Virus record (IMG/VR): IMGVR_UViG_3300023293_000013
Span: 1-60,145 of that record
DNA: 60,145 nt
Direction: 5' to 3' (one strand)
From: a virus
Lineage: Duplodnaviria > Caudoviricetes
Below are positions 28,693 to 32,945 of this stretch, in pieces. The notes under the pieces are model-generated. The model saw only the letters and a list, made by a program, of their open reading frames with translations. It searched no databases and was not told where the DNA came from. The first letter of the stretch is position 1. Each line of letters starts with the position of its first letter. A program made the translations under genes and the position numbers.

Positions 28693-29595
28693 ATGGCGAT
28701 ATCAAGAGGACAACTAGTTAAAGAACTAGAACCAGGTTTGAATGCACTATTCGGACTGGAATATAAGCGTTACGAGAATCAGCACGCTGAAATATATACT
28801 ACTGAATCTTCAGACAGAGCGTTTGAAGAAGAAGTTATGTTATCAGGTTTTGCTCAAGCTCAGACTAAAGCAGAAGGAAGTGGAGTTTCATTTGACAATG
28901 CTCAAGAAACTTTCACTGCAAGATATTCACACGAGACTGTGGCTCTTGCTTTTGCAATTACTGAAGAAGCTATTGAGGATAACTTGTATGACAGACTTGC
29001 AAGTAGATATACAAAAGCGTTAGCTAGATCTATGGCGAACACTAAACAAGTTAAAGCGGTACAACCATTGATTAATGGTTTCGGTACATTCACTTCTGGT
29101 GATGGTTCTGCATTATTTGCAACTAACCACCCAACTATAAGTGGAACTGTATCAAACACATTAGCAACAGCTGCTGACTTAAACGAAACTTCACTAGAGC
29201 AATCATTAATTGACGTTGCTGCAATGACAGACGAAAGAGGTCTAAAAATTGCTGCAAGAGGTGTTAAAATGATTATTCCAAGTGAGCTTCAGTTCACTGC
29301 TGAGAGATTGATGAAATCTCAAGGTAGAGTTGGTACTGCTGATAATGACATTAACGCAATTGCGTCTATGGGAATGGTTCCTCAAGGTTATAGAGTGAAC
29401 AACTTCCTAACTGACCCAGATGCGTTTTATCTTATCACAGATGTACCAAATGGTATGAAGTACTTTGACAGAGCGTCTATCAAGACTGCAATGGAAGGTG
29501 ATTTCGATACTGGTAATGTAAGATACAAAGCTAGAGAAAGATACTCTTTTGGAGTTTCTGACTATAGAGGTATTTTTGCTTCACCAGGAGCATAA
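28693..29595 (+). CDS. Major capsid protein
   Basis: MAISRGQLVKELEPGLNALFGLEY...RYKARERYSFG type recalled from 37-F6/HTVC023P-like phages; followed by a strong hairpin. Confidence 0.88.
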   Translation: MAISRGQLVKELEPGLNALFGLEYKRYENQHAEIYTTESSDRAFEEEVMLSGFAQAQTKAEGSGVSFDNAQETFTARYSHETVALAFAITEEAIEDNLYDRLASRYTKALARSMANTKQVKAVQPLINGFGTFTSGDGSALFATNHPTISGTVSNTLATAADLNETSLEQSLIDVAAMTDERGLKIAARGVKMIIPSELQFTAERLMKSQGRVGTADNDINAIASMGMVPQGYRVNNFLTDPDAFYLITDVPNGMKYFDRASIKTAMEGDFDTGNVRYKARERYSFGVSDYRGIFASPGA

Positions 29596-29604
29596 TAATT
29601 AGAA

Positions 29605-29637
29605 ATAATGAGGCGAGACACAATCTCGCCTCATTAT
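29605..29637 (+). terminator. 14-bp hairpin after the capsid gene (terminator/stabilizer)
   Basis: ATAATGAGGCGAGA-CACAA-TCTCGCCTCATTAT. Confidence 0.7.
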
Positions 29638-29654
29638 CAATATAGAAAGAGAAA

Positions 29655-29918
29655 ATGACTAAACATAAATATATTGTGAACATATTTACAAAATATCTTC
29701 AAACTAGTTTTGAAATTGAAAGTGAAAAAGAGATAAATAATATGGAAGAGCTAAATAAACCTATTATTGACTTTCTAGGAAAATCTGATATAAAATGGGA
29801 AAAAAATGATCTGCAGTATCATGGTACTGGAAATGATTTTTATATAACCTATGAGGAGGTTCAAAATGGCTCAGGACAACATGGTATTGTTCGCAAAGAA
29901 ACTGAAACTCGAATCTAA
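29655..29918 (+). CDS. Hypothetical protein
   Basis: ORF track. Confidence 0.6.
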   Translation: MTKHKYIVNIFTKYLQTSFEIESEKEINNMEELNKPIIDFLGKSDIKWEKNDLQYHGTGNDFYITYEEVQNGSGQHGIVRKETETRI

Positions 29919-30078
29919 TTGGAACGAGTTATTTCTTGAGAACAGAGGAAAAATAACACCAGAAATGTCTGTTTTAGGTGATGAGATTAAACGAGTAGTT
30001 AGATCAATCATTAGAGAACAAGAAGCAGAGGTTCTTAATAATCTTAAAGATGGTGAAGTTCATCTTTTTGCTGGTTAA
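29866..30078 (+). CDS. Hypothetical protein
   Basis: Start corrected to the ATG after GAGGAGG. Confidence 0.6.
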   Translation: MAQDNMVLFAKKLKLESNWNELFLENRGKITPEMSVLGDEIKRVVRSIIREQEAEVLNNLKDGEVHLFAG

Positions 30079-30125
30079 TTAGAACTTAGACATTATTAAA
30101 AAAGACCTTTTTCCTTAGGGATCTC

Positions 30126-30154
30126 TTGCACTCTATTCAAAAATCATATATAAA
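30126..30154 (+). promoter_or_regulatory. Sigma70-type promoter of the tail operon
   Basis: TTGCAC-17 nt-TATAAA; predicted TSS ~30161. Confidence 0.6.
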
Positions 30155-30160
30155 TATCTC

Positions 30161-30240
30161 ACTATACATAAATTAATTAATATTTTACATAGACGCGGTA
30201 TAGTCGACGGCCTAGAGACTATGTAGAATTTAACTAGGAG
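30161..30240 (+). ncRNA. Doubly pseudoknotted cis-regulatory RNA candidate that sequesters the RBS
   Basis: 11-bp stem 30182-92/30219-29; loop GTATAGT pairs with ACTATAC 30161-67; loop CCTAG pairs with CTAGG 30234-38. Confidence 0.7.
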
Positions 30241-30247
30241 AATAATC

Positions 30248-30658
30248 ATGGCTAATACTACATTCTCAGGACCAGTCCGATCGGAAAATGGTTTTGAAGA
30301 CATAACAAAAAACGCAGATACAGGTGCAATCACAACTAATGCTACTTATGGAGCAACTATCACAGGTGGTGTTCAATCATTATCTGGTGCAGGTGCAGTT
30401 GATCTTACAAATTTAGTAACAGAACTTACAACAGCAGCAGGTGCTGCTGCAGTTACTTTAGCAGATGGAACAACTTCAGGCCAAATCAAAATCATTAACA
30501 TGATTGTTGATGGTGGTGGAACTGCAACAGTTACTCCAGTTACATTTGCAAACGGAACAACAGTTGCTTTCGATGCAGTAGCTGATTCAGCTACTTTAGT
30601 ATGGAACAGTACTATTGGTTGGGTCGCTACTTCAGTGAATGGGGCAACAGTAGCATAA
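30248..30658 (+). CDS. Virion structural protein
   Basis: MANTTFSGPVRS; Thr/Gly/Ala-rich. Confidence 0.75.
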   Translation: MANTTFSGPVRSENGFEDITKNADTGAITTNATYGATITGGVQSLSGAGAVDLTNLVTELTTAAGAAAVTLADGTTSGQIKIINMIVDGGGTATVTPVTFANGTTVAFDAVADSATLVWNSTIGWVATSVNGATVA

Positions 30659-30670
30659 TAAATAATTAAT

Positions 30671-30688
30671 GGAGCCCTTCGGGGCTCC
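30671..30688 (+). terminator. UUCG hairpin (terminator/processing)
   Basis: GGAGCCC-TTCG-GGGCTCC. Confidence 0.65.
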
Positions 30689-31741: not shown

Positions 31742-32238
31742 TGGCAAAATTATCTACAGGAAAATACGCACAAGCAATATCAGATAGATCAGGTATGGCA
31801 TTTCCTTATCAAGAAATGGTTACTGAATGGGATGGTACTTTTGTTCATGTTTCAGAATTTGAATCTAAACAACCACAAATTCAACCAACAAGATTTACAG
31901 GTGATCCTCAAGGATTAATGAATGCTAGACCAGCAAGAGTTGAACCTGCAACAGAAAATTTATTACCTGGAAATCCATTTAGTTTAACTTCAGGTTCCGC
32001 TATTGTAACCGTTACAGAACCTGCACATAGAAGATCAACAAGTGATGTTGTTGTATTTAGAAATGTAGATAAAAGCCCCGGAGGCCTGGTGTATTCTTTA
32101 TTTGAAAATTCTGCAGGATTTAGTATAACAGTTATTAATACAAATAGTTATAGTTTTAATTGTGGAAGCAATGCAATTATAACAGAAAACTCAGGAGGAA
32201 TGTCTGTGACCGCTGGTCCAGTTACATTAACACCATAA
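31741..32238 (+). CDS. Virion structural protein
   Basis: Coupled ORF. Confidence 0.7.
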   Translation: MAKLSTGKYAQAISDRSGMAFPYQEMVTEWDGTFVHVSEFESKQPQIQPTRFTGDPQGLMNARPARVEPATENLLPGNPFSLTSGSAIVTVTEPAHRRSTSDVVVFRNVDKSPGGLVYSLFENSAGFSITVINTNSYSFNCGSNAIITENSGGMSVTAGPVTLTP

Positions 32239-32945
32239 TGGCAGGTTTTACTTACGCAACTTTAACAACAGCAATTTTAAATTATACTGAGGTAGATAAT
32301 AATGTTTTAACATCTACTATTACAGATCAAATAATTGAAAATACAGAATTAAGAATTTTAAGAGATGTTCCAATTGATGCATATAAAAAACAAAAAATTG
32401 GTAATTTAGTTACAGGACAAAATACAGTTAACGTTCCTGCTCAAACTTTATTTGTAAAAGGTGTACAAGTTTATGATTCAACATCAGCTTCTACAGGTGC
32501 GAATACTTGGTTAGAGAAAAAAGATGAAACATATTTACAAGAATTTCAACCTTCTACAGAAAATGCAGCTAGAGCTAAACCAAAATACTATGCTATGTTT
32601 GGTGGAGCAACAGGTGTAACAGATACGACTTCAGGAAGATTATTTTTAGCTCCTGCACCAGATACTACTTATGTATTTAAAATAAGTTATGAAACAATTC
32701 CAACTGGATTATCTGGCTCAAATACTACAACTTATATTAGTCAATACTTTGGAAATGGTTTATTATATGCTTGTTTATCAGAAGCATTTTCTTATTTAAA
32801 AGGTCCAATAGATATGTTGACACTATATGAAAATAAGTATAAACAAGAGCTAGAGAAGTTCGCAGCAGAACAACTTGGTAGACGTAAAAGAGATGACTAC
32901 ACGGACGGTACTGTTCGTATACCAGTCCCTTCACCGACACCTTAA
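32238..32945 (+). CDS. Putative adaptor/tail protein
   Basis: Start corrected to MAGFTY; LAPAPD..Y, LLYACLSEA. Confidence 0.6.
   Translation: MAGFTYATLTTAILNYTEVDNNVLTSTITDQIIENTELRILRDVPIDAYKKQKIGNLVTGQNTVNVPAQTLFVKGVQVYDSTSASTGANTWLEKKDETYLQEFQPSTENAARAKPKYYAMFGGATGVTDTTSGRLFLAPAPDTTYVFKISYETIPTGLSGSNTTTYISQYFGNGLLYACLSEAFSYLKGPIDMLTLYENKYKQELEKFAAEQLGRRKRDDYTDGTVRIPVPSPTP

Follow-up and report, generated by a model that had tools for sequence, protein, structure and literature searches.

What is a compactly folded RNA leader doing in front of a hypervariable phage gene? The question is raised by positions 30161-30247 of the virus record IMGVR_UViG_3300023293_000013 in IMG/VR. The record is rated as a 96 % complete virus, and the whole 60,145-bp stretch, called the window here, provides all coordinates. 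Its phage, an abundant one in the ocean, is a pelagiphage of the HTVC027P/HTVC023P type. The stretch 30161-30247 is the entire predicted 5′ untranslated leader of the open reading frame (ORF) 30248-30658, downstream of a Mu gpT-like major capsid gene, and is present in one copy per genome. From sequence comparison, the leader is read here as a class of the Mu-gpT-DE RNA family (Rfam RF03012) that has pseudoknots and had not been modelled before. It probably acts in cis as RNA, gating the initiation of translation of the hypervariable gene behind the capsid gene, and probably also shields the 5′ end of the transcript.

An earlier note, made from the letters of this DNA, had listed a promoter, a stem (P1), three GAC motifs and two pseudoknots for this region, and a check of the sequence found every one of them in place. 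The pairings were subsequently examined in relatives. With the capsid protein as bait, which made the sample blind to the RNA, 80 IMG/VR loci were fetched, and 81 loci were compared. The leader was found in 66 of the 81, that is, in every locus extending far enough downstream; the remaining 15 stop at most 527 nucleotides (nt) past the capsid gene and thus short of the leader, as coordinate arithmetic showed. An alignment of 57 unique leaders, designated class A, was used to test the structure including both pseudoknots. In this alignment 98.6 % of the paired cells were indeed paired as against 88.2 % in shuffles, none of 500 of which reached 98.6 %, and controls with slid partner strands gave 19-39 % pairing. 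Compensatory changes on both sides were observed at 16 of the 24 pairs. All nine pairs of P1 covary, as do three of the seven pairs of pseudoknot 1 (ACUAUAC/GUAUAGU) and two of the five pairs of pseudoknot 2 (CCUAG/CUAGG), both pseudoknots being 100 % paired. RNAalifold on its own recovered P1 with eight pairs, all eight of them compensated. The observation is confirmed as real: covariation supports the hairpin as well as the two pseudoknots, and their pairings are kept in homologues. A mutually exclusive helix, TATAGTC/GACTATG, had also been proposed; it is present in the window but was rejected, as it showed no compensatory pairs and a pairing level (92.5 %) equal to that of shuffled sequences (92.6 %).

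A second set of leaders, collected by a pattern in which the bases of pseudoknot 1 were left free and then aligned to the covariance model, gave 96.9 % pairing, far above both the shuffled and the slid controls. The relatives L098 and L127 carry ACUGCG paired with CGCAGU, which amounts to three further compensated positions in pseudoknot 1, and an additional compensated variant of this pseudoknot occurs in L189. For pseudoknot 2, a pattern for a changed loop 2 returned 85 stretches, 40 of which were real elements while the rest were chance matches and were dropped; a CUUGG partner faces a CCAAG loop in all 40. One relative, L113, has mismatched P1 strands (GAATGTAG versus CTAGATCT) and looks like a recombinant or a chimeric assembly of two leader variants.

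The GAC triplets, to which the earlier note had drawn attention, turned out to be meaningful, as the three of them build a three-way junction. The C of each GAC pairs with the G of the next, and the third C with the first G, such that three arms close around the single unpaired A residues 30193, 30207 and 30218, which are invariant in the 57 sequences. The pair G30195-C30205 is changed to C-G in L032, L057 and L058, and C30208-G30217 to U-A in L012, L014 and L073 and likewise in a short class of relatives (GAU..AAC); these covariations explain the GAC motifs. Arm 1 is the covarying stem of 8-11 bp, arm 2 consists of 2 bp and arm 3 of 1 bp. Loop 1 (8-9 nt) holds a strand of pseudoknot 1, and loop 2 (GG-N5-A) one of pseudoknot 2. 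In this arrangement the 5′-terminal A30161 might stack beside the 2-bp arm, in the centre of the junction. Between the pseudoknot 1 strand and the first GAC, relatives have 14-24 nt, the 5′ strand of P1 included. Constraint is far stronger on the junction A residues and on the loop sequences than on the P1 stem, and the junction is kept although the adjoining capsid protein drops to 56 % identity.

The position of this structure relative to the transcription start is conserved as well. Among 175 class-A leaders unique by regular expression, two of which are spurious matches, 166 have a promoter of the form TTG[CA]NN-17-TANNN[ATC], and in 162 of these the first paired base comes after a gap of 6 nt from the -10 hexamer, as against 7 nt in three and 5 nt in one. 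The promoter and start-site geometry noticed in the window is thereby found in its relatives too. Of the other class-A leaders, four carry a terminator and then a TATAAT-like hexamer (TATAAT or TATATT) with the same 6-nt gap, and two carry TATAAG, which the expression excludes. A terminator lies immediately upstream of the promoter in some relatives. The promoter of the window was not listed by a simple promoter scan. Its site is unique in the window, and the pattern TTGC-N18-20-TATAWA gave three sites as against 2.6 expected. Judged from the sequences, the class-A structure appears to begin at the predicted +1 and to end 8-15 nt before the AUG.

A highly conserved, doubly pseudoknotted core with a helix whose first base coincides with a defined 5′ end could also be that of a self-cleaving ribozyme which processes the capsid-gene transcript just 5′ of ACUAUAC, and some copies of the sister class B described below are without a visible promoter. 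This explanation is extremely improbable given the conserved promoter at the right distance in 166 of the 175 leaders and a 5′ strand whose sequence and register differ among the classes. Moreover, no match to known riboswitch families or to self-cleaving ribozyme families (hammerhead, twister, pistol, hatchet, HDV-like) was obtained at the leader at E ≤ 10.

The cultured type phage HTVC023P carries a sister class, class B, that was missed by the class-A model. The order of elements in its intergenic region is terminator, TATAAT, ACCUAG, linker, 8-bp P1, GAC junction, GCUAUAC-AGGAG and AUG, and the junction reads G-AC-U[GACUAGGC]A-G-AC-[GGUAUAGA]-G-AC, with the P1 3′ strand next. In this class, CCUAG at the 5′ end is paired with CUAGG of loop 1, and CUAUAC beside the Shine-Dalgarno sequence with GUAUAG of loop 2. 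By its predicted pairings, class B is class A with the places of the two helices exchanged around the same GAC junction, a natural swap experiment. A scan with a class-B pattern yielded at least 120 stretches and 89 unique leaders, all 89 of which contain both pairing partners; in an alignment of 79 of them 99.1 % of the cells are paired. As the pattern fixed both loops and required CCTAG upstream, only P1 and the sixth pair of pseudoknot 2 are free tests: seven of the eight P1 pairs covary, and the sixth pair occurs in three forms, G-C, C-G and A-U.

The family proved to be wider still. The capsid protein of L307, 56 % identical to that of the window, was used as a second RNA-blind bait for 80 more loci, 70 of which have a MAxTxF-type gene and from which 64 unique leaders were obtained. 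A strict junction rule (GAC..GA[CU]..[GA]AC with required pairs and P1) was obeyed by 51 of the 64, as against 0-2 in 20 rounds of dinucleotide shuffling. Classes C to F comprise small numbers of sequences and were read by eye. They include further pseudoknotted forms (CUUGG/CCAAG, UAUAA/UUAUA, and CUCGUA/UACGAG overlapping GAGG) and GC-rich forms (CCGGG/CCCGG and CUGCAC/GUGCAG-GAG). Two other forms were likewise recognized by eye. In one, a short form, arm 2 makes a closed hairpin with a tetraloop, the 3′ strand of P1 contains the AUG, and the loop of arm 3 contains the Shine-Dalgarno sequence. The other uses loop 2 to pair with the initiation codon, as GCCA/UGGC or, if the second codon specifies Gly, as CCCA/UGGG. 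In L430, L433, L434, L455, L458, L460 and others the partner of loop 2 is located within a small hairpin loop, e.g., GGGA-CUAUA-UCCC or GGUC-UAUAC-GACC; pseudoknot 2 would be a loop-loop kiss in these leaders.

When 20 of the 80 loci found with the second bait were scanned against Rfam at E ≤ 0.1, one match was obtained: L457 carries Mu-gpT-DE (70.6 bits with a gathering score of 49; E = 2e-14). This family was described by Weinberg et al. (2017), and its function is unknown. Its Rfam consensus, CCCU-GAC-AGcc..ggCU-GAC-AcUAGCCAc-GAC-AGGAGAUuaACAUG, contains three GACs in the same roles, and the model ends at the AUG. Like the leader of the window, Mu-gpT-DE is located after a Mu gpT-like capsid gene and before a homologous MAxTTFxGP gene; its junction is closed by P1, with the three GACs providing the closing pairs and the single unpaired A residues, and it is coupled to the ribosome-binding site (RBS). 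The two differ in that the leader of the window is about 90 nt long as against 53 nt, and its arm 2 retains just 2 bp, with a loop that is paired to the 5′ end. The P1 3′ strand carries the Shine-Dalgarno sequence in Mu-gpT-DE, whereas that of the window lies 6 nt upstream of AGGAG, and it is the loop of arm 3, through pseudoknot 2, that reaches the Shine-Dalgarno sequence in the window, unlike in canonical Mu-gpT-DE. The Rfam covariance model, with its gathering score of 49 bits, misses the window, L189 and HTVC023P: RF03012 gave no gathering matches in the whole window and none at E ≤ 10 in 29950-30450 and 29560-29960, and Rfam returned nothing beyond terminator-driven noise for the other two. 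The earlier guess that the leader may correspond to Mu-gpT-DE therefore holds for the wider family, as judged from the GAC junction, the gpT-like capsid gene, the downstream gene and the match in L457, but not for the motif as modelled by Rfam. The shared junction, the L457 match and the failure of the model in the window together lead to its reading as a pseudoknotted variant.

At least 120 copies of canonical Mu-gpT-DE were found in viral contigs. Canonical cores also occur in L484-L488, five contigs from four metagenome-assembled genomes that are labelled as Rhodobacteraceae-type genera (Salibaculum, Marinovum), Gammaproteobacteria and Sansalvadorimonas, which may be prophages or binned phage contigs. 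A start-codon pseudoknot in canonical Mu-gpT-DE, between the loop UAGCC and GGCUA, was considered and is only partly supported: GCA codons are found only with the loop UUGCC (16 of 77, as against 0 of 137 for other loops), but GCU stands opposite 60 of the 77 UUGCC loops, and GCG opposite 16 of 114 UAGCC loops. The main text of Weinberg et al. (2017) contains no occurrence of "gpT"; its supplement and the CaCoFold tables, which lay outside the search, may already show extra pairs for RF03012. In a passage of a 2020 paper, Mu-gpT-DE appears as no more than a name among families listed for their extra covarying pairs. No description of the leader was found in a search of the literature on pelagiphages, including HTVC023P and HTVC027P, on structured phage RNA, on exoribonuclease-resistant RNAs in connection with phages and on Mu-gpT-DE, and a term search of pelagiphage papers gave nothing on promoters, intergenic regions or RNA structure of this region.

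How these RNAs approach the RBS differs from class to class. Of 172 class-A leaders, 165 have a GGAG that starts 2 nt inside the pseudoknot 2 strand. The CAGG of the P1 3′ strand forms part of CAGGAG in canonical Mu-gpT-DE. As read from the sequences, P1 or the third arm touches the RBS in every readable class. The comparison shows how the leader is built, that it is conserved, where it lies and that it overlaps the RBS; effects on translation and on stability are inferred as follows. The pairing of loop 1 would tie the first seven nucleotides of the transcript onto the body of the junction, and the pairing of loop 2 would tie CUAGG, the last two or three bases of which belong to the Shine-Dalgarno sequence, onto the same body. 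The fold would in this way clamp both the 5′ terminus and the 5′ half of the RBS onto one compact body. With both G residues of GGAG located in pseudoknot 2 in the window, the folded state may be expected to limit access of the 30S subunit, and the hidden 5′ end would probably be protected from decay that depends on a free 5′ end.

A number of observations weigh against such a gate on translation. The folding energy of the leader is ordinary (minimum free energy −12.4 kcal/mol, z = 0.25); it is conservation and covariation that make the case for a structure beyond chance. All 89 class-B leaders have 1-8 nt between the end of the pseudoknot and GGAG, without any overlap, and seven of the 172 class-A leaders have a separate AAGGAG downstream, with GGAG starting 4 nt past the pseudoknot strand. 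Base pairing therefore does not occlude the RBS in all leaders, and the fold may act sterically or be purely architectural. Of the lock on the RBS postulated in the earlier note, the base pairing is found in the class of the window, in which pseudoknot 2 overlaps the Shine-Dalgarno sequence, and is absent from class B. With respect to the 5′ end, L189 is an exception, its 5′ strand lying about 6 nt past the predicted +1. In approximately 11 class-B leaders, as read by eye, a GC hairpin 3-5 nt before CCUAG leaves no space for a -10 hexamer; the 5′ strand is therefore not at the transcription start in these leaders. RNA evidence came from 24 runs, 11 of which are on record as RNA and all of which are available as contigs; four were compared. 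Metatranscriptome contigs span 30119-30224 and cross the promoter, with a higher summed depth over the core, contigs being of a kind that cannot show starts, ends or expression. Finally, Rfam gives RF03012 the type "Gene; sRNA" and not that of a cis-regulator.

The latter label would fit a trans-acting small RNA (sRNA), or an antitermination RNA that modifies RNA polymerase, like put of HK022, as would the facts that the element opens a transcription unit and that a hairpin follows the first gene. Such a function is very unlikely, since the conserved structure continues to 8-15 nt from the AUG and includes the Shine-Dalgarno sequence, the Rfam consensus itself ends in AGGAG..AUG, no terminator is present between element and gene, and all classes couple to the RBS.

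More serious is the alternative that the leader is a constitutive 5′ stabilizer or insulator, which would bury the 5′ terminus against RNase E and pyrophosphohydrolase and offer a fixed RBS context to a hypervariable coding sequence. Together with the UUCG hairpin at the 3′ side of the gene, it would produce a long-lived monocistronic message. The 5′ terminus is paired from the predicted +1, almost every locus printed has a GC hairpin immediately behind the stop codon, hypervariability of the coding sequence sets in after codon ~16, and the unpaired GGAG of class B and of the seven class-A leaders is in line with this explanation. A passage in PMC12753301 gives a latent period of ~18 h for HTVC027P, and one in PMC5436854 mentions that Pelagibacterales possess an RNase E. 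However, a plain 5′ hairpin would suffice for protection, the short class is without 5′-end pairing and has its AUG inside P1, and the A residues of the junction and the loops are far more constrained than P1. As an invariant junction is combined with varied routes to the RBS, a gate that responds to a factor is ranked above a constitutive stabilizer, which we consider rather unlikely. The junction looks like a binding core with interchangeable expression platforms.

To what factor might the gate respond? The product of the controlled gene offers a candidate. Among 134 unique complete products, which range from 67 to 332 amino acids, only about the first 16 residues are conserved (MAxTTFxGPVxSxxGF). 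The gene in the window is a hotspot of variation, with the promoter, the leader and the first codons forming a conserved DNA block 5′ of it. Pelagibacter phage HTVC027P is the sole DNA match among cultured phages, and it matches this very block (promoter, leader and first codons), at 30119-30295 with 80 % identity. The product has 2,408 database relatives, and none of the 120 listed carries an informative name. No Pfam family was found for it, and PHROG 36974 matches residues 1-39 only. AlphaFold2 models were poor (pLDDT, the predicted local confidence score, 38.9 for the single sequence and 44.7 with a 33-row alignment). Neighbours in the ESM Atlas, taken as leads only, are T4 gp9/10 N-like and depolymerase C beta-sandwich structures and hint at a fibre or baseplate-like beta structure. 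The terms "tail operon" and "virion gene" used in the earlier note are not borne out for a hypervariable product with an unrecognized fold and ~16 conserved N-terminal residues.

As the trigger, protein feedback is our favoured guess, albeit a tentative one, and it would most plausibly be exerted by the conserved N-terminal module of the gene's own product. Fibre-like proteins are usually trimers. If the product is one, its three N-terminal anchors might, while undocked from virions, bind the GAC junction of their own mRNA, tighten the pseudoknots and shut the RBS; this extension is equally speculative. A small molecule is a distinctly improbable trigger. The GAC junction would then be an aptamer and its ligand would stabilize the pseudoknots that cover the RBS; an invariant core at the junction and "expression platforms" that vary from class to class would suit this, and the pseudoknot-sequestered Shine-Dalgarno sequence resembles known translational riboswitches. 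However, the gene context is structural and not metabolic, the neighbouring genes suggest no ligand, and no known riboswitch family matches in Rfam. Of the ligand- or protein-responsive switch proposed at the outset, the structure and its overlap with the RBS hold, while the switching itself is inferred.

The features of the region are collected in Table 1.

Table 1 Features of the leader and of the genes on either side of it (window coordinates)
Feature	Position	Strand	Remarks
Mu gpT-like major capsid gene	28693-29595		Upstream of the leader; PF10124, 30 bits (cut-off 20.1)
Promoter, predicted, sigma-70 type	30126-30154	+	-35 TTGCAC 30126-30131, 17-nt spacer, -10 TATAAA 30149-30154
Pseudoknot 1, 5′ strand ACUAUAC	30161-30167	+	Starts at predicted +1, 7 nt past the -10 hexamer (6-nt gap)
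A/U-rich 5′ linker	30168-30181	+	
P1, 5′ strand ATTTTACATAG	30182-30192	+	Stem of 11 bp with 30219-30229, including one G-U; conserved core is the 8-9 bp adjoining the junction
GAC 1	30192-30194	+	G30192-C30219 (P1); A30193 unpaired; C30194-G30206 (P2)
Loop enclosed by P1, ACGCGGTATAGTCGACGGCCTAGAGA	30193-30218	+	26 nt
Second P2 pair, G30195-C30205	30195-30205	+	Closes loop 1 (C G GUAUAGU)
Pseudoknot 1, loop strand GTATAGT	30198-30204	+	Complement of 30161-30167
GAC 2	30206-30208	+	G30206-C30194; A30207 unpaired; C30208-G30217 (P3)
Loop 2 (GG CCUAG A)	30209-30216	+	Pseudoknot 2 loop strand CCTAG, 30211-30215, complementary to CTAGG 30234-30238
GAC 3	30217-30219	+	G30217-C30208; A30218 unpaired; C30219-G30192
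P1, 3′ strand CTATGTAGAAT	30219-30229	+	Covariation and RNAalifold
Pseudoknot 2, 3′ strand CUAGG, and overlapping Shine-Dalgarno AGGAG	30234-30240	+	CUAGG 30234-30238; AGGAG 30236-30240
Controlled gene, 136-aa protein (MANTTFSGPVRSENGF...)	30248-30658	+	ATG at 30248; N-terminal ~16 aa conserved, rest hypervariable
GC-rich UUCG hairpin GGAGCCC-UUCG-GGGCUCC	30671-30688	+	Just past the stop codon; weak U-tract; 3′ boundary of the cassette

A model search gave no second copy of the leader in the window or in the genome, the next best score being 19 bits, and neither the core motif nor the promoter occurs a second time in the window. The hairpin behind the controlled gene could be a terminator or a 3′ stabilizer; a similar GC stem with a UUCG-type loop was present in nearly all of 60 downstream regions printed. 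The distance between the capsid stop codon and the leader is 565 nt in the window, and approximately 110-155 nt separate capsid gene and leader in L127, L189 and HTVC023P. In the window, this interval contains two small overlapping ORFs of 87 and 75 amino acids (29655-30078), which are also present in HTVC027P and for which no family matches were found; the leader comes directly behind the capsid gene in L127, L189 and HTVC023P. A 16-bp hairpin (AATAATGAGGCGAGACACAATCTCGCCTCATTATC, 29604-29638) begins 9 nt past the capsid stop codon and has no clear U-tract on the + strand, and class-A and class-B relatives carry a GC-rich hairpin with a T-run at the same place. On the 3′ side, the gene of the leader is followed by genes for products of unknown function and then by an SU10-type adaptor gene. 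For its 236-aa product (32235-32945), matches to PF24175, the SU10 adaptor family (61.9 bits), and to the "tail protein" PHROG 10775 were found, which places the beginning of the head-tail connector genes about 2 kb past the leader.

In conclusion, the evidence argues that Mu-gpT-DE, an orphan motif filed as an sRNA, is a cis-acting leader that extends from the start of transcription up to the AUG. As a family it is much larger and architecturally more varied than the Rfam model, with doubly pseudoknotted forms and a helix-swapped class. An invariant three-GAC junction with a variable reach to the RBS constitutes a testable design for the post-transcriptional control of a hypervariable phage gene of surface type. 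Two cultured phages, HTVC027P for class A and HTVC023P for class B, together with a published infection transcriptome, make the question directly testable.

Three groups of known RNAs invite comparison with the leader. The exoribonuclease-resistant RNAs (xrRNAs) of flaviviruses likewise have a three-way junction, a 5′ end that is tucked in by a pseudoknot, and a hairpin loop that pairs 3′ of P1. In the xrRNAs, however, the 5′ end pairs with a junction strand and abuts P1 directly, whereas that of the window pairs with loop 1 and is separated from P1 by an A/U linker of about 14 nt. The host enzymology differs as well, and the pairings of the leader do not by themselves show a ring topology. 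The SAM-II/SAM-V and preQ1-II riboswitches sequester the Shine-Dalgarno sequence in a pseudoknot. They resemble the leader in that a pseudoknot covers part of the Shine-Dalgarno sequence and that aptamer and expression platform are fused, and differ from it in fold; neither an Rfam match nor a metabolic gene context links the leader to them. The leaders of E. coli rpsO, bound by S15, and of T4 gene 32 are operators for the autogenous control of translation, and in them a pseudoknot or a junction is located at the RBS. The likeness is that of a structured leader which involves the Shine-Dalgarno region, although no sequence or model match to either was obtained at the leader, and to our knowledge the combination of a junction with two pseudoknots has no counterpart among autogenous operators. 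By analogy with these two systems, a protein made in excess, and destined for a partner in a large assembly, could repress the translation of its own mRNA.

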